The notes: generated from the sequence alone by a model not told the origin. A DNA stretch of 64,000 nucleotides from Tagaea sp. (GCA_965229215.1 OZ245864.1:134360-198359); one strand, 5' to 3'. Shown: positions 166 to 40,106, counted from the stretch's first letter. Translations and numbers: made by a program.

Positions 166-2319
166 ATGCTCAAGCAGCCCACGGTCGACGAGCTCTCCCG
201 CCTGGAGGAAGAGCTCGATCCGGAGATGCAGTTCCGCAAGATGCCGGGCGGGACGGGAATGCTCGTGGGCGGGCTGCTGCTGGTTCTCTCGTTCTTCCAC
301 TACTACACGGCCGGCTTCGGGCTGCTGCGCGAGGTCACGCATCGCGGCGTGCATCTGGCCTTCGTGCTCGGCCTCATCTTCCTCGTCTTCTCCGCGCGCC
401 ATGCCGACGGGCGCGCCGCGAAACCCTCGACCCTGCTGCGCCCGGGCGGCATCCCCGTCGCCGACTGGCTGATGGCGGCGGCGGCGGCCGTGTCCAGCCT
501 CTATGTGCCGTGGATCTTCAACGATCTCGCCTTCCGCGTGGGCAACCCTTCGGGTCTCGACGTGGCGATGGGCACGCTGACGGTCGTGCTGATGATCGAG
601 GCCACGCGCCGGGCGATCGGCTGGGGCCTGCCGCTGATCGCGCTCTTCTCGATGGTCTACGCGCTCTACGGCACGTGGTTCCCGGGCATCTTCCTGCATC
701 CGGGCGCCACGTGGGCCACGCTCGTCAACCACCTCTATCTCACCAGCCAGGGCGTCTACGGCGTGGCGCTGGGCGTGGTCGCCACCTACGTGTTCCATTT
801 CGTGCTGTTCGGCGTGCTCGCCACGCGCATCGGGCTGGGACGGCTGTTCCTGGGCGTCGCCGCCGCGGTCGCTGGACGATTCGCGGGCGGGCCCGCGAAG
901 ATCTCGATCTTCGGCTCGGCCCTGTTCGGCATGCTGTCGGGCTCGTCGGTCGCCAACACCGTCACGGTCGGCTCGCTCACCATCCCGATGATGATCCGGC
1001 TCGGCTACCAGCGGCACTTCGCGGCCGCCGTGGAATCCACCGCGGCGACCGGCGGCCAGATCACGCCGCCGATCATGGGCGCCGCCGCCTTCCTGATGGT
1101 CGAGTTCCTGAACCTGCCCTATTCGACCATCGTCGTGGCCGCCATCGTGCCTGCCATGATGCACTTCTTCGGCGTGCTGATGCAGGTGCATTTCGAGGCC
1201 AGGCGCACCGGCATGCGCGGCCTCACCGAAGACGAGGTGCCCAAGCTGCGCGAGGTGTTCGCGGCCGACTGGCCCACGCTCGCTCCGCTGGTCGCCCTCG
1301 TGACCGTGCTGTTCAGCGGCTACACGCCGTATCTCGCGGCGTTCTGGGGCATCACGGGCTGCCTGCTGGTCGGTCTCTCTCGCGCGCGCGGTGCCGCCGC
1401 GCTCGTCTTCTCGGCCGTGATGCTGCTGGGCGCGCCGTTCGAACTGCTGCGCCTGCCGTTCGTCAATCCGGCACTGGCGCTGCTCTGCGCGGCCGCGATG
1501 CTGCACGGCGTGCTGTCGCGCGGAACGGAGGGGCGGCGCCTCGTCGCCGGCATGCTCGATTCGTTCGTGCTTGGCGCCAAGTACGCGATCGGCGTGGGTG
1601 CCGCGGCGGCGACGGTGGGAATCATCGTCGGCGTGGTGACGCTGACGGGCGTGGGATTCAAGATCTCGTGGATCGTCACCTCGCTCGCCGACCAGTGGGC
1701 CCACCTGGTCGTCGACAACCTGCCGGTGGCGCTGTTCGGGCTCAAGTCGGCCACGCTGTTCTTCACGCTGCTGCTGACGGCGGTGGTCTGCATCCTGCTG
1801 GGCTGCGGCGTGCCGACGACGGCCACCTACATCATCATGGTGACGGTGGCCACACCCGCGCTCGGCATGCTGGGCGTGTCGCCGCTCGTGGCCCACTTCT
1901 TCGTCTTCTATTACGGCGTGCTCGCCGACATCACGCCGCCGGTCGCCATCGCGGCCTATGCGGGGGCGAGCATGGCGGGGGCCGACCCGTTCCGTACCGG
2001 CAACACCGCGTTCCGGCTGGCGCTCGGCAAGGTGCTCGTCCCGTTCGTGTTCGCCTTCTCGCCGGCGATCCTGATCATGGTGCCGGAATTCACGGTCGCG
2101 AACTTCCTGCTCGCGACGGGAACGTGCCTTGCCAGCGTCACGCTGCTGTCGGCCGCGTTCGCGGGCTGGTTCCTCGCCCCGATGGCGACGTGGGAACGCG
2201 TGCTGATCGGTATCGCCGCGTTGCCGATGATCCACGGCTCGCCCGGCGGTGCCGCGATCTGCGCCGTGCTCGCGGCACCCGTGCTGGTGCGCCAGATTCT
2301 GGCGCGCCGGGCCGCCTAG
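166..2319 (+). CDS. TRAP transporter fused DctQ/DctM-like permease (TAXI-type, 717 aa)
   Basis: ATG at 166 with GAGGA 8 nt upstream. The long polytopic hydrophobic protein matches fused TRAP permeases and follows a TAXI receptor fragment. Confidence 0.85.
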   Translation: MLKQPTVDELSRLEEELDPEMQFRKMPGGTGMLVGGLLLVLSFFHYYTAGFGLLREVTHRGVHLAFVLGLIFLVFSARHADGRAAKPSTLLRPGGIPVADWLMAAAAAVSSLYVPWIFNDLAFRVGNPSGLDVAMGTLTVVLMIEATRRAIGWGLPLIALFSMVYALYGTWFPGIFLHPGATWATLVNHLYLTSQGVYGVALGVVATYVFHFVLFGVLATRIGLGRLFLGVAAAVAGRFAGGPAKISIFGSALFGMLSGSSVANTVTVGSLTIPMMIRLGYQRHFAAAVESTAATGGQITPPIMGAAAFLMVEFLNLPYSTIVVAAIVPAMMHFFGVLMQVHFEARRTGMRGLTEDEVPKLREVFAADWPTLAPLVALVTVLFSGYTPYLAAFWGITGCLLVGLSRARGAAALVFSAVMLLGAPFELLRLPFVNPALALLCAAAMLHGVLSRGTEGRRLVAGMLDSFVLGAKYAIGVGAAAATVGIIVGVVTLTGVGFKISWIVTSLADQWAHLVVDNLPVALFGLKSATLFFTLLLTAVVCILLGCGVPTTATYIIMVTVATPALGMLGVSPLVAHFFVFYYGVLADITPPVAIAAYAGASMAGADPFRTGNTAFRLALGKVLVPFVFAFSPAILIMVPEFTVANFLLATGTCLASVTLLSAAFAGWFLAPMATWERVLIGIAALPMIHGSPGGAAICAVLAAPVLVRQILARRAA

Positions 2320-3068
2320 AGCGCGACCGACATCCCGCCGTCGACGATGATCGTCTGGCCGGTGAGGTAGGAGCCGGCGTCCGAGCAGAGCAGCAGCGCC
2401 GCACCGCCCAGTTCCGCGGGATCGCCCCAGCGGCCCAGCGGCGTGCGGCGCACGATCATCGCGTTGAACTCGGCATTGTCGATCAGCGGCTTGTTGAGGT
2501 CGGTGGCGAAATAGCCGGGCGCGATGCCGTTGACGAGGATGCCCTTGGGCGCCAGCTCGATCGCCATCTGGCGGATCATGCCTTCGAGCGCCGTCTTGGC
2601 CGCGGCATAGGCGACCGTGTTGGGCCGGCCCAGATGCGCCATCAGCGACGTGGTGTAGAGGATGCGCCCCTTGCCGGTGGGCGCCATCACCTTGGCCGCC
2701 TCGCGCCCCAGCACGAAGCCCGCGCGCAGATGCTGGCCCACGACATTGTCGAAATCGGACGACTTGTACTCCGTGAACGCGCCGCGGATCGTGCCGCCGG
2801 CGTTGGAGACGAGGATGTCGAACCGGCCGCGGCGCTTGTGGATGTCGGCCACCGCCGCCACGCACGCGGCCTCGTCGGTCACGTCGAAGGCGAGCGCTTC
2901 GCCGCCGAGCTTCTTCGCGGCCGCCTCGGCTTCCGCCTTGTTGCGCGCGTTGATCACGACATGCGCGCCGGCGCCGGCCAGCGCCGAGGCCATCCCGAAA
3001 CCGAGACCCCGCGAGCCGCCGGTCACGAGGGCCACGCGGCCTTTTAGGTCGAACATCGGATGCGTCAT
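2316..3068 (-). CDS. SDR family oxidoreductase (gluconate-5-dehydrogenase/KduD-like)
   Basis: TGGSRGLG Rossmann motif and YxxxK catalytic motif in a 250-aa protein. RBS AAGGGGAA upstream of the ATG at 3068. Convergent 4-bp overlap with the TRAP permease stop. Confidence 0.8.
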   Translation of the reverse strand: MTHPMFDLKGRVALVTGGSRGLGFGMASALAGAGAHVVINARNKAEAEAAAKKLGGEALAFDVTDEAACVAAVADIHKRRGRFDILVSNAGGTIRGAFTEYKSSDFDNVVGQHLRAGFVLGREAAKVMAPTGKGRILYTTSLMAHLGRPNTVAYAAAKTALEGMIRQMAIELAPKGILVNGIAPGYFATDLNKPLIDNAEFNAMIVRRTPLGRWGDPAELGGAALLLCSDAGSYLTGQTIIVDGGMSVAL

Positions 3069-4292: not shown

Positions 4293-6315
<2,023 letters not shown>

Positions 6316-6348
6316 CGGGGCGGCCGCGCCGGTAGCGGCCGCGCATGT

Positions 6349-6912
6349 TCAATCGTGGGCGTGGACGAATTCGCCCCGGGCCATCGCGAGATGATGCGGC
6401 TGGTGGTGGCCGCCGCTTGTCATCAGGCCGATGAATCCGAGGCCGCGGATATGGGCGATTTGAGCCGGATTGCCTGACGTCACCACGAGGCGTACGCCGT
6501 CGGCCAGCTTCTCGGCCTTCGCGGTCCACCCGTTCATTTTTCCCAGTTCGGCGGAATGGGCGACGACCATGCGCTGGATGGCGCCGATCGTGCGCCCGGT
6601 ACCGGTCACGCGCACCTCGATGCCGCCGTCGACCTTCGCGACCTTCGCGTCGGCCTTCAGCGTGACGTCGTTCATGTCGATCAGGTGCTGGCGCAACGCC
6701 TCGAGATCGACCTTTGCCCAATCCGTTTTCGCATCGGCTTCGAGGATTCGGACGATCTCCTGGACCGTGCCGAACGCGTCCTGCCCTGGCATCGTCGGCA
6801 CCGTGACAGCCTGTGCCGCAGAATGCATGCCGGCATGCGGGATCTGCTGGGCTTGCGCGGCAGCAGGGAGGGCGGGCAGCAGCAGGGCAAGGGCAAGAAC
6901 GAGATTCTTCAT
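6349..6912 (-). CDS. secreted hypothetical protein with His-rich C-terminus
   Basis: Start at MKNLVLALALLLPALPAAAQA signal peptide (ATG 6910-6912, GGAG RBS). C-terminus HHQPHHLAMARGEFVHAHD suggests metal binding. Confidence 0.5.
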   Translation of the reverse strand: MKNLVLALALLLPALPAAAQAQQIPHAGMHSAAQAVTVPTMPGQDAFGTVQEIVRILEADAKTDWAKVDLEALRQHLIDMNDVTLKADAKVAKVDGGIEVRVTGTGRTIGAIQRMVVAHSAELGKMNGWTAKAEKLADGVRLVVTSGNPAQIAHIRGLGFIGLMTSGGHHQPHHLAMARGEFVHAHD

Positions 6913-6973
6913 GGGAAATGCTCCGGTTCGGTCGTTACGGCAACCTTCTTGCCAGACCGTCGGCCGCACCCAC

Positions 6974-7537
6974 ATGATAGGGATCATGTCGAAGGAATTG
7001 GCCGATCTTCTCGCTCCGCTGCCCTCGCGCGCCTGCACGTTTCCAGCCGGGCGATACCTGTTCCGGCAGGGCGACGGCGTGCGCGTGCTGCACTGGGTTG
7101 TCGAAGGCGAGGTGCATCTCGTCCGTCTGCAGCCCGACGGCGCGCCGCTGATCCTGCAACGCGCGCGCGCGGGATCGGTGCTGGCCGAGGCTTCGCTGTT
7201 TTCGGCGCGCTACCATTGCGATGCGACGGCCGTCGTTCCCACCCGCACGCTGGCCATGGACAAGGCGGCCATGCGCGCCGCTCTCGACGGACGGCCGGCG
7301 TTCGCGGCCGGGTGGGCCAGCTACCTCTCCCGCGAAGTGCAACGCACGCGCCTGCGGGCCGAAATCCTGTCGCTGCGCACGGTTGCCGCCCGGCTCGATG
7401 CGTGGATTGCGGCGAACGGTGGACGCCAGCCGGTGAAAGGCGAATGGAAGACGGTCGCGGCGGAAATCGGCACGAGTCCCGAAGCGCTCTATCGCGAACG
7501 CGCGAAGCGCAGGCCGCACCGCAATCATCGTCGGTAG
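6974..7537 (+). CDS. Crp/Fnr family transcriptional regulator
   Basis: cNMP-binding-like N-terminal domain plus C-terminal HTH. Start is ambiguous between ATG 6974 and ATG 6986. Confidence 0.65.
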   Translation: MIGIMSKELADLLAPLPSRACTFPAGRYLFRQGDGVRVLHWVVEGEVHLVRLQPDGAPLILQRARAGSVLAEASLFSARYHCDATAVVPTRTLAMDKAAMRAALDGRPAFAAGWASYLSREVQRTRLRAEILSLRTVAARLDAWIAANGGRQPVKGEWKTVAAEIGTSPEALYRERAKRRPHRNHRR

Positions 7538-7653
7538 CGTTTTCACCGGCGATGCACGTACGTCATACAATCGTGCTTCCTACAGTTGTGCGGTTGACGT
7601 AAAAACTTCTAAAATTGTACGATTGTCCCTCGATCCAGCGGGGACATTTCGAC

Positions 7654-8076
7654 ATGGCGCGAACGATCCTACTGCGGCATCCGGAGACGAACGAAGTCCG
7701 CAGGGGCTATTACGGCTTCTGCTGGTCCGGCCTGTTCTTCGGCGGCCTGCCGGCGCTCGCGCGCGGCAATCTCAAGATCGGCATCGCGCTGCTGGTGCTC
7801 GCCCTGCTGCCGTTCGTGCTCAAGGGCGTCTTCTACCGCTCGCTTGCCGGCTCGCTCTATCTGTTCGCCGTCGTCGTCTTCGCCAGCGAATATAACCGCT
7901 TCTACACGATGGCGCTGATCGACCAGGGGTTCCAGTTCTTCGACCGCGCCGAGCATGTCGCGGCCGCGAAGCGCAATCTGGGCTTCGTCTCCGGCCGCGT
8001 GCTCAACATCTTCGGCCGCAGGCGCGCCAAGCCCGCCGCACCCGCCGCCGAAACCAAGCCGTCGGAAGCCGCCTAG
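7654..8076 (+). CDS. hypothetical small membrane protein
   Basis: Two predicted TM helices. ATG 7654 preferred over the upstream 7615 start of the track ORF. Confidence 0.45.
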   Translation: MARTILLRHPETNEVRRGYYGFCWSGLFFGGLPALARGNLKIGIALLVLALLPFVLKGVFYRSLAGSLYLFAVVVFASEYNRFYTMALIDQGFQFFDRAEHVAAAKRNLGFVSGRVLNIFGRRRAKPAAPAAETKPSEAA

Positions 8077-8732
8077 AGAATTCCCTCGCGCCTGAAGACG
8101 CTGGCGAGGCTCTCGCCGCGCGCGAGCGCCGCGCGCGTGCGGTTTTCGCCCGAGACCTTGGCGAGCGCCGCGGCAAAGACCTGCTTCTCGATCTTCTTCG
8201 GGATCGCGACCGCGCCGTCCGCGTCGCCGAAGATCACGTCGCCGCTTTCCACGCGCACGCCACCCAGTTCGACCGGCACGTCGATCGCGGCGACCTCGCC
8301 GCGGCCCTTGCTGTCGAGCGGCCCGATCCCGCCCGCGAAGACGGGGAACTTGAGCTTGCGGATCGCGCGCACGTCGCGCGTCAGCCCGTCGGTGAGGCAG
8401 CCCGAGGCGCCCCGCGCCCGCGCGGCGGTGGTCAGCAGTTCGCCCCACGGGCCGATCTTCGGGTTGGCGGCGCAGGCCAGCACGGCCACCTCGAACGGCT
8501 TCAGGTCGTCGACCAGCGCGATTTCCAGCGTGTAGGGGTTGTGGCCCTTGGGCACGTGGAACACCTCGCGGTAGATCGCCGTGCGCGCGCGCCCGAGCAG
8601 GACGCGCGTGTCGTCGAGGGGGCGGATCGAGGGCGCAAAGGCCTGGTTGCGATAGCCCAGGCCGTCGAGCGTGTCGGAAACGACCGAGACGAAGAGCTTG
8701 CGCCGCTGGATCGCGAAGGGATCGCGCGCCAT
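8073..8732 (-). CDS. RraA family protein (HMG/CHA aldolase / oxaloacetate decarboxylase-like)
   Basis: 219-aa C-terminal part of track ORF 8073..9539 with an RraA-like fold. ATG 8730-8732 overlaps the upstream SDR stop in an ATGA junction. Confidence 0.8.
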   Translation of the reverse strand: MARDPFAIQRRKLFVSVVSDTLDGLGYRNQAFAPSIRPLDDTRVLLGRARTAIYREVFHVPKGHNPYTLEIALVDDLKPFEVAVLACAANPKIGPWGELLTTAARARGASGCLTDGLTRDVRAIRKLKFPVFAGGIGPLDSKGRGEVAAIDVPVELGGVRVESGDVIFGDADGAVAIPKKIEKQVFAAALAKVSGENRTRAALARGESLASVFRREGIL

Positions 8733-9484
8733 CAGTAGGTCGCCCGGCCGCCGGTGATGTCGAACACGCCGCCGGTGGTGAACGAGCATTCGGCCGAGGC
8801 GAGCCACGTCACCATCGAAGCGATCTCCTCGATCTGCACGAAGCGGCCCATCGGGATCTTGCCGAGCATGAAGGCGACGTGGGCCTCGGTCATCTGCTTG
8901 AGGATGTCGGTGTCGGCGACGGCCGGCGTGATGCAGTTGGCGAGCACGCCGGTCTTGGCGAGCTCCTTGCCCAGCGATTTCGTCAGCGCGATGAGGCCGG
9001 CCTTGGCCGAGGAATAGGCCGGCGCGTTCGGGTTGCCTTCCTTGCCGGCGACCGAGGCGATGTTGACGACCCGCCCGTAGCCGCCCTTGATCATGTGCGG
9101 CACGACCGCGCGGCAGCACAGGAACGGGCCGGTCAGGTCGACGTCGATGACCTTCTTCCATTCGGCGACCGGGTATTCCCACGTCGTCGTGTTGGGGCCG
9201 GTGATGCCGGCATTGTTGACGAGGATGTCGATGCCGCCCATCGCGCCGATCGTGGCGTTGGTCGCGGCCGAAACGCTCGCCTCGTCGGCGACGTCGGCGG
9301 GCACGATATGCACGCGCGCACCCGCGGCAAGACGCTTGGCGGCGGCATCCAGTGCCGCCGGATCGCGGTCCCACAGCGTCACGCTGGCGCCCGAGAGGAG
9401 GAAGCGTTCGGCGATGGCGAGGCCGATGCCGCGCGCGCCGCCGGTGATGATTGCGCGCTTGGCCTCGAGATCGATCTTGTTCAT
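8732..9484 (-). CDS. SDR family oxidoreductase (3-oxoacyl-ACP reductase-like)
   Basis: TGGARGIG and YSSAK motifs. ATG 9482-9484 with AGGGAG RBS, 11 nt after the aapM stop. Confidence 0.85.
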   Translation of the reverse strand: MNKIDLEAKRAIITGGARGIGLAIAERFLLSGASVTLWDRDPAALDAAAKRLAAGARVHIVPADVADEASVSAATNATIGAMGGIDILVNNAGITGPNTTTWEYPVAEWKKVIDVDLTGPFLCCRAVVPHMIKGGYGRVVNIASVAGKEGNPNAPAYSSAKAGLIALTKSLGKELAKTGVLANCITPAVADTDILKQMTEAHVAFMLGKIPMGRFVQIEEIASMVTWLASAECSFTTGGVFDITGGRATY

Positions 9485-9495
9485 GGGCAGTCTCC

Positions 9496-10542
9496 CTAGT
9501 GGCGCGTCCCCAGCCCGAGACGCTTTTCGAGGCCCGCACTCCAGCGTGACAGGCCGAAGCAGGCGAACCAGAAAATCAGTCCGGCGAAGACATAGGCTTC
9601 CATCGTCAGGCCGACCCACTTGGGATCGGCGAGCGCAGCATGCACGATGCCGAGGAGATCGAAAAGCGACACGACGAGGACGAGTGTGGTGTTTTTGAGC
9701 AGCGCGATGAACTCGTTGGCAAGCGCCGGCAGCGCCAGGCGCAGCGCCTGCGGCAGCACGATGAACCAGGTCGCTTTCCAGTAGCCGAGGCCCATGGCGG
9801 CGGCAGCCTCGGTCTGGCCCTTGGGCAGCGATTGCAGCCCGCCGCGGATCGCCTCGGCCATGTAGGCCGCGACGCACATGGCGAGGCCCACGACCGCGCG
9901 CACCAGCCGGTCGATGCCCACGCCCGCAGGCAGGATCAGCGGCAGCAGCATCGAGGCGAGGAAGATGACCGCGATGATCGGTACGCCGCGCCAGAATTCG
10001 ATGAACACGACCGACAGCGTGCGGATCAGCGGCAGGCGCGACTGGCGCCCCAGCGCCAGCAGCACGCCCAGCGGGAAGGCGCCGATCCCGGCATAGACGG
10101 CCATGAACACCGTCAGCATCAGGCCGCCCCATTCGCGCGTCTCGACCACCGGCAGCGGCCCGCCGCCCAGCAGCAGCCACAGGCCGAGCGGCGGGAAGAC
10201 GACGAGCGTGAGGAAGCCGGAGACCGTCTTGTACGGCGCCCCGTTCCACAGGAACGGCACGACGAAGGCGACCAGCAAGGTGGCCGCGAGGTCGATCCGC
10301 CATGTCTGGGCGGGCGGGTAGAGCCCGTACATGAACTGGCCGAAGCGCACGCGGATGAATACCCAGCACGCGCCGCCGGCCGCGCAATCCGTACGGTCGG
10401 CGCCGTTCCATGTCGCCTTCAGCAGCGCCCATTCGACCAGCGGCGGCACGTAATGGACCAGCAGCGCCGCGCACGCGAGCGTGACGGCCGCATCCAGCCA
10501 CGTGGCGAACAGGTTGGTGCGGACCCAGTCCAGCGCCTTCAT
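9496..10542 (-). CDS. aapM: polar amino acid ABC transporter permease (AapM-like)
   Basis: 348-aa permease with an EAA loop (GQTEAAAAMGL). ATGA overlap with the aapQ stop. Confidence 0.85.
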   Translation of the reverse strand: MKALDWVRTNLFATWLDAAVTLACAALLVHYVPPLVEWALLKATWNGADRTDCAAGGACWVFIRVRFGQFMYGLYPPAQTWRIDLAATLLVAFVVPFLWNGAPYKTVSGFLTLVVFPPLGLWLLLGGGPLPVVETREWGGLMLTVFMAVYAGIGAFPLGVLLALGRQSRLPLIRTLSVVFIEFWRGVPIIAVIFLASMLLPLILPAGVGIDRLVRAVVGLAMCVAAYMAEAIRGGLQSLPKGQTEAAAAMGLGYWKATWFIVLPQALRLALPALANEFIALLKNTTLVLVVSLFDLLGIVHAALADPKWVGLTMEAYVFAGLIFWFACFGLSRWSAGLEKRLGLGTRH

Positions 10543-11603
10543 CGCGTCACCAGCGCGATGCGCGCGTTGTACCAGTTCATGAACACCGAGACCGCGAGGC
10601 CCACGACCAGATAGACGCCCAGCACGATGGCGATGATCTCGATCGCCTGGCCGGTGTTGTTGAGCGCGGAGCCCATGAACACGCTGACGAGCTCGGGGAA
10701 CGCGATGACGGCGCCGAAGGACGAGTTCTTCAGCACGTTGAGATACTGGCTGGTCATCGGCGGGACCATGACGCGCAGCGCCTGCGGAATGATGATGAGG
10801 CGCAGCATCAGGCCGGGGCGCAGGCCCAGCGACGAGGCCGCCTCGGTCTGGCCCTTGCTGACGGCAAGGATGCCGCCGCGCACGATCTCGGCGATGAAGC
10901 CGGCGGTATAGGTGACGAGCGCGAAGAACAGCGCCACGAATTCGGGGATCAGCGCGAAGCCGCCGCGGAAATTGAAACCGGCCAGCACCGGCACGCTCCA
11001 CGCGGTCGCAGAGGCGGCCATGGCCGCGGCCAGGGCGGGGAAGGCCACGACGAGGCCAAGGCCCGCCGCGACGATCGGGAAGGGCTGGCCCGTTTCCGCC
11101 TGCCGCTTGGCCGCCCACAGACGCAGCGCCAGGAAGGCCGCGAGGCCCGCGACGAACGCGGCGACCGGCCACCAGACGACCGCGCCCGTCTCGGGCAGCG
11201 GGATCGACAGGCCGCGGTTGTTGAGGAAGAACAGGCCGCCGATGTCGATGCTGTTGCGTGGTGCCGGCAGCGCGCGGATGACGCCGAAATACCAGAAGAA
11301 GACGAAGAGCAGCAGCGGGATGTTGCGCACGAATTCGACGTACGCGCCCGCGAAGAGCGACAGCAGCCAGTTCTTCGACAGGCGCGCCACGCCCACCACG
11401 AAGCCCAGCAGCGTGGCGAAGACCATCGCGAGGACCGAGACCAGCACCGTGTTGGCGATGCCGACCATCAGCAGGTCGAAGATGCGGTCCTGCGGCGTGT
11501 AGTCGATCAGGCGGAAGGGGACGTCGATGCCCGACGTGCGCCACAGGAAGTCGAATCCCGAGGCGATGCCGGCCTTGACCATGTTCTCCGAGGCGTTCGC
11601 CAC
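10539..11603 (-). CDS. aapQ: polar amino acid ABC transporter permease (AapQ/YhdX-like); true N-terminus probably extends to about 11699
   Basis: Permease with EAA loop. Homology to YhdX-type N-termini (ARVRDWLAQIAV...) continues upstream of the first canonical start, GTG at 11603. A TAA at 11700-11702 leaves only a non-canonical ATC there. Confidence 0.75.
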   Translation of the reverse strand: MANASENMVKAGIASGFDFLWRTSGIDVPFRLIDYTPQDRIFDLLMVGIANTVLVSVLAMVFATLLGFVVGVARLSKNWLLSLFAGAYVEFVRNIPLLLFVFFWYFGVIRALPAPRNSIDIGGLFFLNNRGLSIPLPETGAVVWWPVAAFVAGLAAFLALRLWAAKRQAETGQPFPIVAAGLGLVVAFPALAAAMAASATAWSVPVLAGFNFRGGFALIPEFVALFFALVTYTAGFIAEIVRGGILAVSKGQTEAASSLGLRPGLMLRLIIIPQALRVMVPPMTSQYLNVLKNSSFGAVIAFPELVSVFMGSALNNTGQAIEIIAIVLGVYLVVGLAVSVFMNWYNARIALVTR

Positions 11604-11713
11604 GAAGAACCAGCCGAGCAGAAAAAGGCCGCCCGCGACCGCGATCTGGGCAAGCCAGTCGCGGACGCGGGCGTCGTAGAAATAGCGGCGGAGGATGGCT
11701 TACGCCCCTTCGC

Positions 11714-12745
11714 TCACTGGAACGGCGGCGTGAAGAGCAGGCCGCCCTTCGTCCAGAGCTGGTTGGGCCCGCGCGGCAGCTTGAGGGGCGAACCCATGCC
11801 GACCGTGCGCTCGTAGCTTTCGGCGTAGTTCCCGACCTGCTTGATCGCCTGGTACATCCAGTCGTTCGACAGGCCGAGCATCGCGCCGAAATTGCCTTCC
11901 GCACCCAGCAGGCGGCGGACTTCCGGATTGGCGGAAGACGCCTTCATCTGGTCGACGTTCTTCGACGTGACGCCGAGGTTTTCGGCGGCGATCAGGCCGT
12001 TGAGGACCCAGCGCACGACCGCCTGGAAGCGTTCGTCGCCGTAGCGCGTCGTCGGGCCCTGCGGATCGTTCGAGATCAGCTCGGTCAGGATGACGTTATC
12101 GTCGGGTGACTTCAGCTTGATGCGCTGGCCGGCGAGGGCGCCGAAACCGGCGGTGTAGGCGTCGCAACGCTCGGCGTCGTAGGCCGCGATGGCGTCGTCG
12201 TTCTTCTGGAAGTTGACGATCGTCACCTTCTTCTTGCGCTCGGCGAACCAGTCGGTCGCCTGCTTCTCTTCCGACGAGCCGGCCGCGACGCAGATCGTGG
12301 CGCCGTCCATCTGGTCGGGCTTGGTGATGCCGGCCTTCTTGCGCACGACGAAGGTCTGGCCTTCGTAGAAGTTGATGCCCTGGAAGTTCACGCCCAGCGA
12401 GGCGTTGCGCGAGAAGGTGATCGTCGTGTTGCGCGACAGCAGATCGACCTGGCCCGACTGCAGGATCGGCCAGCGCTGCTGGACCGACGTCGGGGTGAAC
12501 TTGACCTTGTTCGCGTCGCCCAGGATCGCGGCGGCCAGCGCCTTGCAGTAGTCGACGTCAATTCCCGTCCACTCGCCCTTGTCGTTGGCGAAGGAGAAGC
12601 CGGGCAGGCCGAGATGGACGCCGCACTCCAGATGGCCGCGGGCCTTGATGGCGTCGAGCGTCGGGCTCGGCGTCAGCGTCTGGGCCTGCGCGCTAAAGGA
12701 GATGGTCAAGGCGGCAAAGGCCGCCGCCAGAATTCCGGTTTTCAT
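11714..12745 (-). CDS. aapJ: general L-amino acid ABC transporter substrate-binding protein (AapJ-like)
   Basis: Start at MKTGILAAAFAALTISFSAQAQ signal peptide (ATG 12743-12745, AGGGGG RBS). Family-3 periplasmic binding protein. Confidence 0.85.
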   Translation of the reverse strand: MKTGILAAAFAALTISFSAQAQTLTPSPTLDAIKARGHLECGVHLGLPGFSFANDKGEWTGIDVDYCKALAAAILGDANKVKFTPTSVQQRWPILQSGQVDLLSRNTTITFSRNASLGVNFQGINFYEGQTFVVRKKAGITKPDQMDGATICVAAGSSEEKQATDWFAERKKKVTIVNFQKNDDAIAAYDAERCDAYTAGFGALAGQRIKLKSPDDNVILTELISNDPQGPTTRYGDERFQAVVRWVLNGLIAAENLGVTSKNVDQMKASSANPEVRRLLGAEGNFGAMLGLSNDWMYQAIKQVGNYAESYERTVGMGSPLKLPRGPNQLWTKGGLLFTPPFQ

Positions 12746-12885
12746 AAGGGACCCCCTGGATGGACGTCGTTCCGCATTTGCTGCGTTGCGGGGGATAATG
12801 GCGTCTGTAGCGCCCGTCGGCAAGATGTCATAGACGTGCGGTAGATACGGTGATTATTCTCGCGTTGGAATAGGGGGGAATAGCC

Positions 12886-13968
12886 GTGTCTGCCCGACTT
12901 GAGATCGATCGCGTCGAAACCGCGTACGGGAACGTGCGCGTCCTGAAGGGTGTCTCGCTGGACGTCGCACCGGGCGAGTTCGTCGCCCTGCTGGGATCTT
13001 CGGGCTGCGGGAAGACGACGCTGCTGCGCACGATCGCGGGTTTCCTCAACGCCACGTCGGGCGCCATCCGCGTCGGCGGGCGCGACATTGCGGGCGAGCC
13101 GCCGGACAAGCGCGGCATGGCGATGGTGTTCCAGAGCTACGCGCTGTGGCCGCACATGACGGTGGCGCAGAATATCGGCTACGGCCTGCGCCTGAAAAAA
13201 TGGTCGCGCGAGAAGATCGCGGCGCGCGTCGGCGAGATCCTCACGATGCTGAAGCTCGACGGGCTGGGCGAGCGCAATGTCAGCCAGCTTTCCGGCGGCC
13301 AGCGCCAGCGCGTGGCGCTGGGCCGGGCGCTTGCCGTCGATCCCGCGATCCTGCTGCTCGACGAGCCGCTCTCCAATCTCGACGCGCGCATCCGCGAGGA
13401 CGTGCGCCACGAGATCAAGGCGCTGCAGAAGAGCCTCGGCATCACCGCGATCCACGTCACGCACGACCGCGAGGAAGCCATGGTGATGGCCGACCGCATC
13501 GTCATCCTCGATGCCGGCACGATCGCCCAGGTCGGCCCGCCCGAGACGCTCTACAACCAGCCCAACTCGCCCTTCGTCGCATCCTTCATGGGGGCCAACA
13601 ACGTCGTGCGCCTGACGGGCACGCGGCAGGGCGACATGCTCGCCATCGCGCAAGGGCCGGGCAACCGCGCGACAAGCCTGCGCAAGGCGGCGCCGGCCGG
13701 CTTCACGCAAGGTTCCCTCGTCGCGCATTTCCGCTCCGAAGCGGCCGAACTCGCCGACGGGGCCAGCACCGACTCCGGCGCGCTCATGCTGCCGGGCACG
13801 ATCGTGCAGGCCGCCTATCCCGGCGGCATCTGGCGCTATGCGGTCGCGGTCGGCGACAGCCAGTACATGGTCGACGATCCAGACCGGCGCGAACTCGGCG
13901 CGAAAGTCGCCGTGCGCGTGCCGGCCGAAGCGCTGCACATCTACCCGGCCCCGGTGTCGCCGAACTGA
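12886..13968 (+). CDS. ABC transporter ATP-binding protein (PotA/FbpC-like with C-terminal TOBE domain)
   Basis: Walker A GSSGCGKTT, signature LSGGQRQR and Walker B LLLDEPLSNLD. GTG start with GGGGGGAA RBS. Confidence 0.85.
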   Translation: MSARLEIDRVETAYGNVRVLKGVSLDVAPGEFVALLGSSGCGKTTLLRTIAGFLNATSGAIRVGGRDIAGEPPDKRGMAMVFQSYALWPHMTVAQNIGYGLRLKKWSREKIAARVGEILTMLKLDGLGERNVSQLSGGQRQRVALGRALAVDPAILLLDEPLSNLDARIREDVRHEIKALQKSLGITAIHVTHDREEAMVMADRIVILDAGTIAQVGPPETLYNQPNSPFVASFMGANNVVRLTGTRQGDMLAIAQGPGNRATSLRKAAPAGFTQGSLVAHFRSEAAELADGASTDSGALMLPGTIVQAAYPGGIWRYAVAVGDSQYMVDDPDRRELGAKVAVRVPAEALHIYPAPVSPN

Positions 13969-14053: not shown

Positions 14054-15205
14054 ATGAAACGCAGGACGGTGATTGCCGCATTCGCGGCAGGCACGTTGCT
14101 GGCGGCGGCGGGTGGAGCCAACGCGCAGCAGATCAACCTCAACGTGATGACGGCGGGCGACCAGAACATGGTCGACTACATCACCGAGTATCTCGGGCCG
14201 ATGTTCGAGAAGGCCAATCCGGGCGTGAAGGTACGCGCGGTGGGCACGGGCCCCGGCGACGCCGGCTCGCAGCGCATCTGGGAGCGCCTGGAAGCGCAGA
14301 AGAAGGCGAACTCGGCGACCGTCGACGTCGACGTCGCCATCGTCCACCAGAAGATGGCGGGCGAGATGGTGAAGGGCGGCCTGCTGTCGAAGTACCGCAG
14401 CCAGATCTCGACCGGCAGCATGGCGACCAACGACGTGACGAAGAACGCGCTGGGCGTGAACGTCGACGGATTCGTCATCCCGATGTTCAACAGCCAGATC
14501 GCCATCGCCTACAACCCCGACAAGGTGAAGACGGCGCCGTCGAGCTACGACGATCTCGTCGCCTTCTCGTCCGCCAATCCGAAGCGCTTCGGGCACAACG
14601 GCATCCGCGGCGGCATGTCGGGCGTGGGTTTCGTGTTCGGCTGGCTCTACGCCTATGCCCCGCAGCCGGCCAAGCTGATCGAAGGCCCCTATGACGACGC
14701 GACGGTGGCGGCCCTCACGCCGGCGCTGCAGAAGCTCAAGGCCTTCAACGGCACGGCGACGATCACGCCGGGCAATGCGGGCACGCTCGACGCGCTCAAC
14801 CGCGGCGAGATCGACATGGGCCCGGTGTGGATGGACATGTTCTATTCCTGGCAGGCGGACGGGAAGCTCTCGCCCAAGCTGAAGCTGACGCTGCTCAAGA
14901 CCGGCCTGCCGGGCCAGCCGATGTACTATGTGGTGCCCGAGAAGGCGGCCAACGCGGCCGCCGCGCGCAAGTTCGTCGAAATGGCGACCTCGCCGCAGGT
15001 GCAGGCCAAGGGCATCGTCGAGCGCTTCAACTGGCTGCCGGGCATCGACGCCAGCCACGTGCAGCAGTATCTCGACAAGAAGATCTGGGACAAGCTGTTC
15101 CAGGACGTGCCGCCCGACATGCTGAAGGCGATGGGCAAGCCCATGCCGCAGTCCGACTACTTCACCAAGATCCAGGAACAGTACGAAAAGATCGTCCTGA
15201 ACTGA
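14054..15205 (+). CDS. ABC transporter periplasmic solute-binding protein (family 1, polyamine/iron-like)
   Basis: Start at MKRRTVIAAFAAGTLLAAAGGANAQQ signal peptide (ATG 14054, GGAGAGAG RBS). Lies between the ATPase and two permeases. Confidence 0.8.
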   Translation: MKRRTVIAAFAAGTLLAAAGGANAQQINLNVMTAGDQNMVDYITEYLGPMFEKANPGVKVRAVGTGPGDAGSQRIWERLEAQKKANSATVDVDVAIVHQKMAGEMVKGGLLSKYRSQISTGSMATNDVTKNALGVNVDGFVIPMFNSQIAIAYNPDKVKTAPSSYDDLVAFSSANPKRFGHNGIRGGMSGVGFVFGWLYAYAPQPAKLIEGPYDDATVAALTPALQKLKAFNGTATITPGNAGTLDALNRGEIDMGPVWMDMFYSWQADGKLSPKLKLTLLKTGLPGQPMYYVVPEKAANAAAARKFVEMATSPQVQAKGIVERFNWLPGIDASHVQQYLDKKIWDKLFQDVPPDMLKAMGKPMPQSDYFTKIQEQYEKIVLN

Positions 15206-15260: not shown

Positions 15261-16094
15261 ATGGGTCCATCGCGCAACATCTCCATCCTCCTGATCGTGC
15301 CCGCCCTCCTCGTGGTGGCGGCGCTATTCGTCTATCCGCTGGGTTTTTCGCTGGTCGGCGCCTTCCAGGACAAGGAATCGGCCTGGACGCTCGCCAATTT
15401 CGGTCGCGCGTGGGAGCTCTACCGCGTCGATACGGCCTTCACGGTCGTCATCGTGCTGGTGTCGTGCGTCCTCATCGCCCTCTTCTCGATCGCCATTGGC
15501 GGATATCTCACGCTGGGCGAAAGCCGCATCGCCAAGGCGATCCTGTCGTTCATCTACCGCTGGCCGCTCTTCATCCCGTTCATCGTCGCCGCCCAGTGCA
15601 TGCGCACCTTCATCGCGCGCAACGGCATGATGAACATGACGTTCGTCTATTTCGGCATCCTCGATCTCGACCAGGTCCAGGGTTTCCTCGACTGGCGCGG
15701 CATCATCATCACGTTCGTGTGGAAGCAGACGCCCTTCGTGGCGCTGATGGTGTCGGGCGCCATGGCCGGGCTCGACCGCTCGACGATCGAGGCGGCGCGC
15801 AACCTTGGCGCCTCGCGCTTGCGCATCCTGGTCGAGATCGTCGTGCCGCAGGTCTCGCGCACGCTTTCCGTCGGCCTCGTCCTGTCGTTCGTGACGATGA
15901 TGTCGGTCCTGTCGGTTCCGCTGATGCTGTCGGGCCAGAGCCCGTCGATGCTGACGGTCAACATGGCCTGGCGCATCAATTCGGTCGGCGACTACGGCAC
16001 GGCCAACGCGCTCGGCTTCGTCTCTTACTTCATGACCGGCTTCGCCGCGTGGTTCTACATCCGCCACGGCCTGCGCGAGAAGGCGGCCCAATGA
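15261..16094 (+). CDS. ABC transporter permease (PotB-like)
   Basis: Six-TM permease in the same operon. Confidence 0.8.
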   Translation: MGPSRNISILLIVPALLVVAALFVYPLGFSLVGAFQDKESAWTLANFGRAWELYRVDTAFTVVIVLVSCVLIALFSIAIGGYLTLGESRIAKAILSFIYRWPLFIPFIVAAQCMRTFIARNGMMNMTFVYFGILDLDQVQGFLDWRGIIITFVWKQTPFVALMVSGAMAGLDRSTIEAARNLGASRLRILVEIVVPQVSRTLSVGLVLSFVTMMSVLSVPLMLSGQSPSMLTVNMAWRINSVGDYGTANALGFVSYFMTGFAAWFYIRHGLREKAAQ

Positions 16095-16900
16095 GCCTGG
16101 CAAGCCTGCGCTGGCCGCTGCGCGCGATCGCCCTGATCCTCGTCGCGTTCGTCATTTTCGGACCGCTCGCCAACCTGCTGATCTGGTCGGTGGCCGAGGC
16201 GTGGTTCTGGCCCAACAAGCTGCCCACGCAGTGGGGTTTCCGCTTCTGGGAGATCGTCTTCCGCCCGACGGGCCGCGCGATGGAATCGCTGTGGCTCAGC
16301 GTGTGGATCGCGCTGCTCACCACCGCGTGCTCGCTGGTGCTGTCGATCCCGGCGGGCTATGCGCTGGCGCGCGGCCGGCTGCCGTGGCGGCCGGTGGTGC
16401 TGCTGCTGTTCCTGCTGCCGCAGGCCTTCCCGAGCCTGCCGGTCTACATCAACATCGCGCGCATCTTCTTCGCCTTCGACCTCAACGGCACGGTCACGGG
16501 CGTGGTGCTCGTCCACACGGTGCACGGGCTGGTCTATTCGGTGTGGATCGCGACGGCCGCGTTCGCCGCTATCGAGCCCGAGCTGGAGCAGGCCGCGCGC
16601 AACATGGGCGCCTCGGCTCCGCGCACCTTCTTCGAGGTGACGCTGCCGCTGGCGCTGCCGGGCCTTGTCGCCAGCGCGATCTTCGTGTTCCTCGAATCGC
16701 TCGACGAGTTCACCGGCAGCTTCTTCGTCGGCGCGCCCGAAGTGCGCACGCTGCCGCTGCTGCTCTACAACGCGGCTGCGGGCGGCAACACGCAGATCGC
16801 GTCGATCTCGGCGCTGATCCTGCTCGTGCCCTCGGTCGCGTTCATGCTGCTGGTCGAGCGCTTCCTCAAGGGCGAGGTGATGGCGAAGCTGGGGCGCTAG
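16091..16900 (+). CDS. ABC transporter permease (PotC-like)
   Basis: Start MSLASLRW at ATG 16091 forms an ATGA overlap with the upstream permease stop. The track only shows this protein inside a longer ORF. Confidence 0.8.
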   Translation: MSLASLRWPLRAIALILVAFVIFGPLANLLIWSVAEAWFWPNKLPTQWGFRFWEIVFRPTGRAMESLWLSVWIALLTTACSLVLSIPAGYALARGRLPWRPVVLLLFLLPQAFPSLPVYINIARIFFAFDLNGTVTGVVLVHTVHGLVYSVWIATAAFAAIEPELEQAARNMGASAPRTFFEVTLPLALPGLVASAIFVFLESLDEFTGSFFVGAPEVRTLPLLLYNAAAGGNTQIASISALILLVPSVAFMLLVERFLKGEVMAKLGR

Positions 16901-20374: not shown

Positions 20375-21727
20375 ATGGGTATCGAGTTCCACACGTCGAC
20401 CATCACCGAGAAGGTCTATGACCGCCTGCGCGCCGACATCATCTTCGGTCGCCTGGCGCCGGGCCGCCGGCTGCGCCTCGACGGGCTGACGCAGGATTAC
20501 GGGGCGAGCGTCAGCACGCTGCGCGAGATCCTGAACCGCCTCGCTTCCGACGGGTTCGTCGTCGCCGAAGGCCAGCGCGGCTTCGGCGTGGCGCCGGTGT
20601 CGATGGCGGATTTCCAGGAAATCGCCTCGCTGCGCCTGCTGCTCGAGACGCACGCGATCCGCCTGTGCTTCGCGGCCGGCGACGTCGAGTGGGAAGGCGC
20701 GGTCGCCGCCGCGCATCACAAGCTCGACGCGATGGAACGGCGCATGATCGCGGGCGAGCGCGGCGTCACCGAACAGTGGAAGCGCTACGACCGCGAGTTC
20801 CACCAGGCGCTGATCGCCGGCTGCGGCTCGCAGACGCTGCTCGACATCTATGCCGGCGTCTACGACCGCTACCTGCGCTACCAGATGGTCGCGGTGATCT
20901 TCCGCGGCTCGGTCGCGGCCGACGAGCATCAGGCGCTGCTCGACTGCGCGCTGCGCCGCGACGCCGACGCGGCCATTGCGATCCTGCGCGCGCATATCGA
21001 CGGCTGCGTGGCGCACACAAGGTCGGGCGGCCTGCTTGCACCGGGCGGCGCGCATGCGCCCGCCGCCGAGGCCGGCGCCGAGACCGTCGCCGACAACGCC
21101 TACCGGCGCATCCGCGCCGACATCCTGTCGGGCAGCCTTGCGCCGGGACAGAAACTGAAGCTCGACGCGCTCAAGTCGGGCTACGCCACGAGCGTCAGCA
21201 CGCTGCGCGAGATCCTGAACCGCCTCGCCTCCGAGCGGCTGGTCGTCGCCGAGGGGCAGAGGGGCTTCCACGTCGCCCCCGTCTCTGTCGCGAGCCTGAA
21301 GGAGATCGCGGCCCTGCGGCAACTCCTCGAATGCCACGCGCTGGAACAGTCGTTCGCGGCGGGCGACATCGAGTGGGAAGGGGGCGTCGTCGCCGCCCAC
21401 CACAAGCTCGCGCGCATGGAAGAACGCATGGCGGCGGGCGACGCAGGCGCGACGGCGGCGTGGAAGCGCTACGACTGGCAGTTCCACCAGTCGCTGATCT
21501 CGGCCTGCGGGTCGAAGGCGCTGATCGACGCGCACGCGGCCGTTTTCGACCGCTACCTGCGCTACCAGATGACGGCGCTCAGCTATCGCGGCGACATCGC
21601 CTCGGGCGAGCACCGGCAGATGCTGGAATGCGCGCTGACGCGCGACTCGGCGACCGCGTGCGCGGCGTTGCGCCGCCATGTCGAGGGCGGCGTCGCGCAC
21701 GCGCTCGCGACAGGGACGATCCGCTAG
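20375..21727 (+). CDS. GntR/FadR-family regulator made of two tandem complete wHTH+FCD modules
   Basis: One uninterrupted 450-aa frame. Residues about 10-215 and about 225-440 are paralogous: both contain SVSTLREILNRLAS...VAEGQRGF..VAPVS..., HHKL..ME.RM and RYLRYQM. Divergent from dctP. Confidence 0.8.
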   Translation: MGIEFHTSTITEKVYDRLRADIIFGRLAPGRRLRLDGLTQDYGASVSTLREILNRLASDGFVVAEGQRGFGVAPVSMADFQEIASLRLLLETHAIRLCFAAGDVEWEGAVAAAHHKLDAMERRMIAGERGVTEQWKRYDREFHQALIAGCGSQTLLDIYAGVYDRYLRYQMVAVIFRGSVAADEHQALLDCALRRDADAAIAILRAHIDGCVAHTRSGGLLAPGGAHAPAAEAGAETVADNAYRRIRADILSGSLAPGQKLKLDALKSGYATSVSTLREILNRLASERLVVAEGQRGFHVAPVSVASLKEIAALRQLLECHALEQSFAAGDIEWEGGVVAAHHKLARMEERMAAGDAGATAAWKRYDWQFHQSLISACGSKALIDAHAAVFDRYLRYQMTALSYRGDIASGEHRQMLECALTRDSATACAALRRHVEGGVAHALATGTIR

Positions 21728-33963: not shown

Positions 33964-35388
33964 ATGAGCGGTTCAAAGCCTTTCCGCAACGACAAGGCGG
34001 CCAGCGATTGGATCAGGAAGACGCTGCGGAGCATGGCCTCGCCCCAGGTGCGCCATAACGACGGGCACGGTCTCTACCTGCGACTGTCGCTAGGTGGCAC
34101 GGCGACATGGACCCTCAAGCGCGCGGTCAACGGCAAGCCGCAGGAAAAGACCCTTGGGCACTTCCCCTCGGTCGGCGTGAACGCTGCCCGCGCGAAGGCG
34201 GCCGAATGGCGTGCGGCGATCGACGACGGCAAGGATCCGGCCAAGGACGAAGCGGAGGCACACGCGGCCGAGCTGGCAGCGCGGCAGGCCCGCGAAGAAT
34301 CCGAACGGCAGTTGAAGCTGCGGACGTTCAACGCACTGGCCGAGCGGTTCATGCGCGAACACGTACAGCGCAAGCTGCGTGCGTCCATGCATACGGCCTA
34401 TGGCAGCACCTTGGGTCTGTTGCCCGCGACCATCCCGTCACGTAGCAAGCTTGGGAAGCCTCGCCAGCGTCGTTGCTACGTCGCCGCATGGCGCAACAGG
34501 CCCATAAAGGACATCACGAGCGACGACGTCGACAACGTCTTGAACGCCATCTACACCGCGGCCGAAGCGAAGTTCCGAAAGCGTCATCCCGACTATCCGG
34601 CCGACAAGGAAGTACCTGCAGGCGTGGGCGCTGGCGGAAACCGGATACGGGTCTATCTGCACCGCTTTTTCGAGTGGTGCATCAAGGAACGCTGCATCGT
34701 CGTGAACCCAGTTATGCAGACGTCGCCGAAGGCCGCGGAGCGCAAGCTCGACCGTGTCTTGACCGACGCCGAACTGGTCGAAGTCTGGAACGCGATCGAC
34801 GCGAAAGGCGGCCAGTTTAAGACCGTCTTGAAGGTCATGGCGTACACCGGCCAGCGTGAAAACGAGGTCGCGGGCATGCGTCGGTCGGAGTTGACCTTGG
34901 ACGGGCCGGAGCCGTTGTGGTCCATGCCGCCGTCCCGTACGAAGAAAGACCGCGCGCACAACGTCCCGCTGGCGCCGCAAGTCGTCGACCTGTTGCGCGC
35001 CGTCCCGCCGCTCGAGGAAAGCGACCTCGTATTCACGACGACGGGCAAGACGCCCCTGTCTGGGTGGTCGAAGCTGAAAGCGCGTATAGACGCCCAGATT
35101 GCGCGGGCACGCCGGGCGGCAGGGATAGAGGCCGACATGCCGGCTTGGCGCTTCCATGACCTTCGCAGGACCGCCCGCACGGCCTTCGCGCGTGCTGGCG
35201 TCAAGCCAGAGGTCGCGCGCGCCATCGTGAACCACAAGGCCAAGGGTATGGACGCGATCTATGATCGCTTCGAGTACATGCCACAGCGTCGGGCGGCCCT
35301 GACGGACTGGGCGAACGAACTGGACGGCATCATCGCAGGGACGTCGCGGCATAACGTGGTGCAACTGCGGGCCGCTGGCGCGGCATGA
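33964..35388 (+). CDS. int: tyrosine-type site-specific integrase (P4-like, N-terminal arm-binding domain)
   Basis: Catalytic-domain residues in the HDLRRT and VNHKAKGMDAIYDR regions. Adjacent to a partial tRNA copy. Confidence 0.9.
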   Translation: MSGSKPFRNDKAASDWIRKTLRSMASPQVRHNDGHGLYLRLSLGGTATWTLKRAVNGKPQEKTLGHFPSVGVNAARAKAAEWRAAIDDGKDPAKDEAEAHAAELAARQAREESERQLKLRTFNALAERFMREHVQRKLRASMHTAYGSTLGLLPATIPSRSKLGKPRQRRCYVAAWRNRPIKDITSDDVDNVLNAIYTAAEAKFRKRHPDYPADKEVPAGVGAGGNRIRVYLHRFFEWCIKERCIVVNPVMQTSPKAAERKLDRVLTDAELVEVWNAIDAKGGQFKTVLKVMAYTGQRENEVAGMRRSELTLDGPEPLWSMPPSRTKKDRAHNVPLAPQVVDLLRAVPPLEESDLVFTTTGKTPLSGWSKLKARIDAQIARARRAAGIEADMPAWRFHDLRRTARTAFARAGVKPEVARAIVNHKAKGMDAIYDRFEYMPQRRAALTDWANELDGIIAGTSRHNVVQLRAAGAA

Positions 35389-35570
35389 TGGCCTAGATAC
35401 ATTTTCCCTCGCGTACCCTTCACGCGCGGGGGGACAGTGCGTTGACACCCCGCGCGGGTTGCACCATTCTGCCGTGCATCGGGCCGCTGCCAATTTACCG
35501 ATAGCCAAAACGTCGAAACGCCGAAGGCCTCCCACGTCCGCAACTGCGGACCCAAGGTCGGAGTTTTGAC

Positions 35571-35828: not shown

Positions 35829-35964
35829 AACGAAAGCCCCGACGTGGAGGGACACGCCGGGGCTCGCAAGTTCAGTGTCGAAGAGATAACCGCCCAAACA
35901 CTGTACTCGCGCGCCTGTCGGACTGCAACCTTTCCGCGTCGATCCAGACATGAGGATCGACACC

Positions 35965-37977: not shown

Positions 37978-38011
37978 TATTTGCCCCATCTAGCCGGGAT
38001 GCGCACACGCA

Positions 38012-38032
38012 ACACCCCCCTTTAGGGGGTGT
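38012..38032 (+). terminator. GC hairpin immediately after the primase stop (ACACCCCC-CTTTA-GGGGGTGT)
   Basis: 8-bp perfect stem with a 5-nt loop, 35 nt after the primase stop. No T-tract follows. Confidence 0.35.
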
Positions 38033-40105: not shown

Positions 40106-40106
40106 C

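Follow-up and report, generated by a model that had tools for sequence, protein, structure and literature searches.

The subject of this report is a run of five genes in a 64,000-nucleotide stretch of DNA from Tagaea sp. (GCA_965229215.1 OZ245864.1:134360-198359), a stretch to which we refer, at its full length, as the window. The five genes lie co-directionally on the minus strand at 8073-12745, in the order aapJ, aapQ, aapM, a gene for a short-chain dehydrogenase/reductase (SDR) and a gene for an RraA-like protein (Table 1). The first three encode the binding protein and two permeases of an ATP-binding cassette (ABC) importer of the polar-amino-acid family, which has no ATPase gene of its own, either here or anywhere in the subclade to which it belongs. 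The GC content of the window is ∼66% and raw lists of open reading frames (ORFs) are full of spurious frames, so genes were placed by means of a filter on GC content at third codon positions (GC3) together with the translations. Read directly from the sequence, the aapQ TGA and the aapM ATG overlap as ATGA, 11 nt separate the aapM stop from the SDR ATG (which is preceded by GGGAGA), and the SDR stop and RraA-like start share one nucleotide as TGATG. Both permeases pass the HisM/GlnP-type permease model TIGR01726, with 54.0 and 60.2 bits against a cut-off of 42.2. An earlier account of this DNA, made from the sequence alone (the sequence-only reading), gave the same gene order and coordinates and the same 11-nt gap between aapM and the SDR gene, but misplaced the ATGA overlap, which it put at the SDR/RraA-like junction rather than at aapQ/aapM.

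Table 1. Features of the aapJQM-SDR-RraA-like locus, in coordinates of the window
Feature	Position	Strand	Remarks
aapJ-like periplasmic substrate-binding protein	11714..12745	-	343 aa, signal peptide; PF00497, 59 bits
aapQ-like permease	10539..11696 (ATC start, 385 aa, likelier) or 11603..10539 (GTG start, 354 aa)	-	TIGR01726 and GlnP/GltK-type matches
aapM-like permease	9496..10542	-	348 aa; EAA loop intact
Classical NAD-type SDR	8732..9484	-	250 aa; PF00106/PF13561
RraA-like protein	8073..8732	-	219 aa; PF03737, 108.8 bits
Promoter-like element TTGCCG-17 nt-CATTAT, 5' of aapJ in the 140-bp divergent intergenic region	12795..12823	-	Intergenic alignment; predicted function
PotA/UgpC/PhnT2-type ABC ATPase (context, not a member of the operon)	12886..13968	+	First gene of the divergent complete transporter

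Co-transcription of the five genes is very probable, a judgement that draws on their packing, on a conserved 5' element and on the lack of internal signals. The element forms a conserved block in the intergenic alignment of the window with L002, L003, L168, L082 and L087 (L numbers being our handles for related loci, genomes or contigs), and it falls below the threshold of our consensus scan. Within the operon, the counts of promoters and terminators returned by consensus scanning equal those of shuffled sequence and include nothing meaningful, and a search for leader RNAs or riboswitches gave no Rfam match in 7000-14200 at E ≤ 0.1. The sequence-only reading had described five genes packed as one transcription unit, and in this it agrees with what we find.

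A six-frame scan for Walker-A and LSGGQ motifs, and a tblastn search with an ABC nucleotide-binding domain, both found exactly one ABC ATPase in the 64 kb. This protein of 360 residues is encoded 140 bp from aapJ and divergently from it. It scores 323-347 bits with the PotA, UgpC and PhnT2 models, and only 161 bits with GlnQ, for which the cut-off is 379. Moreover, it heads a complete operon of its own, followed by an SBP_bac_1-type binding protein (14054..15205) and two PotB/PotC/ModB-like permeases (15261..16094 and 16091..16900); we refer to this divergent four-gene transporter as ABC4. Judged by sequence, then, the PotA/UgpC-type ATPase of the window is not the cognate partner of AapQ and AapM. 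Directly 3' of aapM there is no gene for a GlnQ/AapP-type ATPase, the SDR gene lying there instead, nor is there one anywhere in the 64 kb. The sequence-only reading was thus right that the window holds no cognate ATPase, but overlooked the divergent, non-cognate one so close to aapJ.

The missing ATPase is not a peculiarity of this genome. We collected AapM homologues, read the annotated contexts of three of them, and fetched 80 further metagenome loci, which are the best-scoring 80 per scan and partly redundant. For each locus with at least 1 kb present 3' of aapM, we recorded whether an ABC ATPase gene starts within 400 nt on the same strand. None of the 58 loci whose AapM is at least ∼60% identical to that of the window has an ATPase gene after aapM, and clustering of these loci by amino-acid identity gives 42 groups at 95%, 29 at 90% and 10 at 80%. 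Conversely, an ATPase gene follows aapM at a distance of 53-82 nt in all seven loci of canonical relatives, whose AapM is 50-55% identical to that of the window. The three homologues with annotated contexts have no ABC_tran gene in their clusters. A tblastn search of PLSDB with AapM returned solely canonical relatives of less than 50% identity, such as E. coli yhdY (∼49%) and Sinorhizobium (S. meliloti) aapM (∼44%), both of which come from systems with experimental study behind them and belong on the with-ATPase side.

Several ATPases in the fetched loci were considered as hidden cognates and rejected. Those of L135, L136 and L141 are double-domain proteins of more than 500 aa that belong to another transporter, that of L121 appears to come after a FecCD-like permease, and the candidates in L123 and L134 are weak (32-33%) matches at a position similar to that in L121. 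With none of 58 clade loci carrying an ATPase gene and all seven canonical loci carrying one, the lack must be a trait of the whole clade rather than the product of an assembly or annotation gap, the circumstance by which the sequence-only reading had thought its own claim might fail. Our conclusion is that the missing ATPase is a property of an entire, widespread alphaproteobacterial subclade of AapJQM.

The EAA coupling loops of both permeases are strongly conserved among the ATPase-less members of this subclade and are nearly the same as those of the canonical clade, and for this reason we expect them still to dock a dimer of nucleotide-binding domains, most plausibly of GlnQ/AapP type. An importer without an ATPase of its own must use one encoded elsewhere, as the sequence-only reading proposed for this locus, and the clade-wide comparison supports the proposal while leaving energisation in trans something we infer. 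Such systems have precedents. In Anabaena PCC 7120 the BgtA ATPase serves both N-II (NatFGH) and Bgt, which belong to the same transporter family, TC 3.A.1.3 (PMC4500139), and sugar importers are served by the shared ATPases MsmX, MsmK and MsiK (PMC7658222). Like the importers served by BgtA, MsmX, MsmK or MsiK, the present system has no gene for a nucleotide-binding domain, keeps its docking loops and would be supplied with an ATPase in trans. The Anabaena precedent, however, is a lone example from the cyanobacteria, and there the ATPase is carried by the AapJQM-like system, whereas here it is the AapJQM-like system that lacks it, and in a whole alphaproteobacterial clade. The kind of system is therefore already known, namely an incomplete ABC importer energised in trans beside ordinary catabolic genes. 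In the literature that we searched, we found no description of aapJQM without aapP (the Brucella aapJ2 paper covers an orphan binding protein only), so that a clade of AapJQM type which is always without an ATPase, and which has an altered ligand pocket as described below, appears to be undescribed there.

The nearest known counterparts of the importer are AapJQMP of Rhizobium leguminosarum, BztABCD of Rhodobacter capsulatus and YhdWXYZ of enterobacteria (TC 3.A.1.3). The order of binding protein, permease and permease is the same, the binding protein is a large (∼340 aa) PF00497 protein, and the permeases, 350-385 aa long, have N-terminal extensions as well as EAA loops. It differs from these systems in having no fourth, ATPase gene in the window or in the 58 clade members, and in its binding protein, where the clade has Gly for Asp and, in two further conserved motifs, HL for S(D/T) and I for W.

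The differences in the binding protein bear on what the clade transports. AapJ matches the Brucella BztA/AapJ-like structure 4Z9N with 352 bits (E=2.8e-104) over residues 28-341, and keeps the carboxylate-binding Arg as R113 (FSRN). At position 200 (codon near 12148..12146) it has Gly where amino-acid-binding relatives have Asp; in our alignments this Asp is present in the canonical clade, Brucella 4Z9N, PEB1a (2V25), AncCDT-1 (5T0W) and AncQR (4ZV1). By comparison with Asp161 of HisJ/LAO, we take this Asp to be the residue that binds the alpha-ammonium group. All of the clade members that can be read at this point (n∼50) have CDAYTAG(F/V/I/L)GALAGQR, with the Gly invariant, and the Gly-for-Asp signature co-varies perfectly with absence of the ATPase. 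Two other conserved motifs are also present in clade-specific forms, GVHLGLPGF and NTTITFSR. Because the Arg is kept but the Asp is replaced by Gly, we read the ligand as one whose alpha-amino group is absent or substituted. The clade cassette sits in dozens of unrelated contexts, yet over the clade as a whole AapJ (74-95%) is better conserved than AapM (62-91%), even though the flanking genes differ almost everywhere. The clade thus probably binds one common carboxylate of this description.

The two remaining genes of the operon encode enzymes. The best structural relative of the SDR is PDB 6D9Y (309 bits over the full length), a putative L-2-keto-3-deoxyrhamnonate (L-KDR) 4-dehydrogenase that is 51-54% identical to characterised enzymes (PMC11199699, Watanabe and colleagues). 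The same work proposes that Lys209 and Arg247 bind the acid group of the substrate (PMC11199699); adopting its numbering, on the assumption that an 8-residue tag is excluded, the window SDR has K209 and R247, as well as TGGARGIG and YSSAK (157-161). An Asp after strand beta-2 suggests that the enzyme uses NAD. Many homologues that are 68-82% identical to it have been named '2-dehydro-3-deoxy-L-rhamnonate dehydrogenase' by JGI. The SDR is thus like the L-KDR 4-dehydrogenases (LRA5) in its similarity to 6D9Y and in K209/R247, but unlike them in its context. The gene that follows it encodes the RraA-like protein, the operon contains no rhamnose-pathway genes (lactonase, dehydratase or FAH-type diketo-hydrolase), and the genes called up to 10 kb to each side include neither a dehydratase nor an FAH-type diketo-hydrolase. 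The SDR matched no curated model specific to L-KDR 4-dehydrogenase, passing only the generic subfamily models for FabG (233.9 against 222) and glucose 1-dehydrogenase (218.7 against 215). Two other solved relatives, 9JVE and 9KQ1, were set aside, their function not being used for the assignment. By analogy, the likely reaction of the SDR is oxidation of a hydroxyl on a hydroxy- or keto-deoxy-carboxylate.

In the RraA-like protein, Arg119-Asp120 is invariant among 21 homologues and aligns with the RD pair of the HMG/CHA aldolase 3NOJ, although the match to 3NOJ with the family profile is only 75 bits. The protein shares with the HMG/CHA aldolase - oxaloacetate decarboxylase group (LigK/GalC/ProA; 3NOJ) the PF03737 domain, the Arg-Asp pair and a G(D/E)LL motif. 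In contrast to that group, it scores far below the LigK-type equivalog cut-offs (85.3 against 304.5 for TIGR02798, and 91.2 against 179 for NF006731) and its subfamily has very varied neighbours. An identity as RraA, the inhibitor of RNase E, was rejected on length (219 against ∼160 aa) and on score (41.9 against 136, and 34.2 against 123.8; NF006875/TIGR01935). Reasoning again by analogy, we regard the protein as a putative divalent-metal pyruvate aldolase or beta-decarboxylase.

No genes for meta-cleavage of protocatechuate or gallate were found near the RraA-like gene. When the neighbours of the RraA-like family were clustered over 80 genome loci, no partner gene was common to more than 18 of them, and the contexts are heterogeneous, including Tct and TRAP transporters and enolase-superfamily, DHDPS-like and BKACE proteins (families assigned by eye). 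Three loci join the family to transporters of amino-acid type. In L007 (2107..6057) an operon consists of RraA, a class IV aminotransferase, AapJ and AapQ; in L058 (7271..12022) one consists of a polar-amino-acid-type ATPase, a binding protein, a permease, RraA and a class III aminotransferase; and in L081 an RraA-like homologue is found with a divergent aapJQM-like cluster. The first two operons suggest a recurrent logic for the RraA-like family, by which an amino acid is converted to a 2-oxo acid that is then cleaved. We also note that the 3' end of the RraA-like gene of the window overlaps by 4 nt with a convergent gene for a predicted membrane protein of 140 aa (7654..8076, plus strand), which has no Pfam or NCBIfam match and is kept at 58-74% identity in L002-L004.

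Synteny was mapped after genomes had been scanned with an alignment of RraA-like homologues. The window shares its arrangement, ABC4 diverging from aapJQM-SDR-RraA, with seven or more other genomes or contigs (L002-L005, L082/L083 and L168), which like the window are metagenome-assembled genomes (MAGs) labelled Tagaea or Azospirillum, of the Rhodospirillales. Given this recurrence, the five-gene arrangement is not due to chance. Two other arrangements exist: ABC4 diverges from SDR-RraA without aapJQM in L006 and L013, and from aapJQM-SDR without RraA in L087 and L088. Taking the three arrangements together, the SDR gene opposite ABC4 is the constant core, to which aapJQM and RraA are facultative additions. 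We could recognise by eye no similarity across the presumed insertion boundaries when the intergenic regions of the window were compared with those of L006 and L013, and for that reason insertion and deletion are not polarised. Also syntenic with the SDR/ABC4 core, in all of the related loci including those without aapJQM or RraA, are genes for a MetX-like esterase and two more SDRs, which may belong to the same catabolic island as the core. In the window, the MetX-like esterase and the two further SDRs are encoded at 4293..5480 (minus), 5575..6315 (plus) and 2316..3068 (minus); the first of these is a putative esterase of the E22 family, with 530 bits against a cut-off of 450.

In L002, a MAG labelled Tagaea sp., the SDR and RraA genes are separated by an inserted cassette of 3.8 kb (6180..9936). 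The cassette comprises a LysR regulator gene (minus strand) and genes for an aspartate-aminotransferase-like protein, for a phosphonopyruvate hydrolase that scores 400 bits with TIGR02321 (cut-off 374), and for a metallophosphoesterase. Phosphonoalanine is an analogue of aspartate, and its uptake would need an importer of amino-acid type. The first three genes of the cassette match the phosphonoalanine (pal) degradation pathway (PMC3266647).

On balance, we favour the reading that the locus is a composite, lineage-specific operon with an importer energised in trans. It would have arisen in one Rhodospirillales lineage by the bringing of two independently conserved modules under one promoter. 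The first module, aapJ-aapQ-aapM, would be a type I ABC importer of the polar-amino-acid (PAA) family, from a subclade that never encodes an adjacent ATPase, with AapQM drawing on a GlnQ/AapP-type ATPase from another locus of the genome, whether an orphan or one that belongs to a paralogous complete system. The second module, the SDR and RraA-like genes, would be an older pair, linked ancestrally to the divergent complete ABC transporter. In the chemistry that we envisage, the SDR would oxidise the hydroxy- or keto-deoxy-carboxylate, and the RraA-like enzyme, by way of an Mg2+-stabilised pyruvate enolate, would cleave or decarboxylate the resulting 2-oxo acid to give pyruvate.

It is a separate matter whether both modules have one and the same substrate. 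That aapJQM and the SDR/RraA-like pair share a pathway is quite possible, if on the whole somewhat doubtful. In favour of a link between transport and catabolism are the tight junction, kept over considerable divergence, the occurrence of RraA-like homologues with amino-acid-type transporters, and the phosphonoalanine cassette of L002. The sequence-only reading went further and called the locus a dedicated uptake-and-catabolism operon; the five-gene unit stands, but its dedication is not supported in that form, given that the modules separate in relatives (L006, L013, L087 and L088, with aapJQM also found elsewhere); at best such an operon is specific to a lineage, and it may be fortuitous. 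More speculative still, and rather unlikely when all of its parts are taken together, is the idea that the clade is a dedicated importer of a common carboxylate without a free alpha-amino group (an N-substituted amino acid, or a 2-hydroxy- or 2-oxo-acid), uses a multitask ATPase of the PAA family, which would be a proteobacterial counterpart to MsmX/MsiK, and here feeds an SDR plus RraA route to pyruvate that needs no transaminase.

Several of our own observations weigh against the composite operon with an importer energised in trans. No candidate for the trans ATPase was identified in the 64 kb visible to us; both the SDR and the RraA-like protein score below every curated equivalog cut-off, their chemistry being drawn by analogy only; the conserved N-terminus of AapQ has no canonical start codon; and gene calls in the fetched loci come from the GC3 heuristic and tblastn, with no trained gene finder. 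Furthermore, it is with the divergent complete transporter, not with aapJQM, that the SDR is associated most constantly, and the 74-95% conservation of AapJ extends to contexts without SDR and RraA, which argues that aapJQM serves one common ligand unrelated to the SDR/RraA-like pair.

These last two observations form the basis of the strongest alternative, in which aapJQM is a fortuitous passenger. The SDR-RraA pair, the two further SDRs and the MetX-like esterase would then work with the divergent transporter, while aapJQM would be a housekeeping importer for an unrelated ligand, inserted by chance between the divergent promoter and the SDR gene, and a shared transcript would tell nothing about a pathway. 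Consistent with this, SDR opposite ABC4 is present in every related locus, L006 and L013 without aapJQM included; the clade's aapJQM turns up in many unrelated settings while its binding protein hardly varies; and RraA is dispensable in L087 and L088. We consider this alternative unlikely all the same. The 11-nt junction between aapM and the SDR gene is kept while AapM identity ranges from 72 to 100%, RraA-like homologues are found in operons with polar-amino-acid-type transporters and aminotransferases (L007, L058 and L081), and in L002 the inserted phosphonoalanine catabolic cassette lies inside the operon, 3' of aapJQM.

A second alternative is that the divergent PotA/UgpC-type ATPase serves AapQ and AapM as well as its own permeases, in which case an ATPase would effectively be adjacent. 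Wherever a genome has the aapJQM-SDR arrangement, the gene for this ATPase is indeed 140 bp away from aapJ. However, its scores place it in a different ABC family, its complete set of partners is kept in L006 and L013 where aapJQM is absent, and more than 45 other ATPase-less aapJQM loci have neither this nor any cognate-type ATPase within 7 kb. Since so many loci do without such a neighbour, it cannot be the general solution for the clade, and we regard its sharing with AapQM as improbable even here.

The start of aapQ merits separate consideration. No ATG, GTG or TTG is present at the conserved N-terminus of AapQ in the window. There is instead an in-frame ATC at 11696..11694 (minus strand), 8 nt after a Shine-Dalgarno-like AAGGGG, and this codon (ATT in L004) is conserved along with AAGGGG in five genomes: the window, L002, L003, L004 and L168. 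The 31 codons after the ATC contain no indels, and encode a YDARVRDW motif and the first membrane helix, whereas the sequence 5' of the ATC has indels that are not multiples of three. The canonical GTG at 11603 is not conserved, being GTC in L002, L003 and L168. More distant relatives (L082, L087 and L088) have ATG at the aapQ start position. AapQ homologues are 383-389 aa long, and gene callers truncate the present AapQ proteins to 347-354 aa. Taken together, these features indicate that aapQ probably uses a conserved non-canonical AUC/AUU start, which would give a protein of 385 aa. The last alternative, that aapJQM is a decaying relic which has lost aapP and a proper aapQ start and is merely read through into SDR-RraA, could appeal to both of these absences, but it is very improbable in view of three intact reading frames with a strong GC3 coding signature, of the conservation of EAA loops and of motifs in the binding protein throughout 29 lineages (at 90% identity), and of an ATC/ATT codon, Shine-Dalgarno-like sequence and indel-free extension kept across the five genomes.

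Two features of the window outside the operon may be recorded here. An ORF of 450 aa at 20375..21727 (plus strand) matches GntR/FCD-type regulators twice, residues 7-210 being phnR-like and residues 237-436 CsiR-like; the ORF represents either two GntR-family regulators fused in tandem or a pair of genes that were read as a single one. The single tRNA gene of the window (41758..41829, minus strand) lies inside a stretch of lower GC content at ∼34000..46000 (0.62-0.64, against 0.66-0.69), where few ORFs pass the GC3 filter, and which may be an island integrated at the tRNA.

What emerges from this set of results is a tidy, real example of a transporter with a borrowed motor, rather than a new principle. 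As a rule, ABC importers are annotated one operon at a time, and guesses at their substrates are made in the same way, yet within the 'general L-amino-acid permease' family there is a well-populated branch without two of the features that define the family, an ATPase of its own and the alpha-ammonium Asp. Where automatic annotation gives members of the clade labels such as 'general L-amino acid transport system permease', the substrate that the label implies is therefore probably wrong, and tools that assess pathway completeness would score an ATPase-less AapJQM as broken. The SDR and RraA-like pair, for its part, is by analogy a compact candidate route from a hydroxy- or oxo-acid to pyruvate, as yet uncharacterised. 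Finding the trans ATPase would extend the concept of the multitask ATPase, known mainly from sugar importers of Gram-positive bacteria, to amino-acid-type importers of the alphaproteobacteria.

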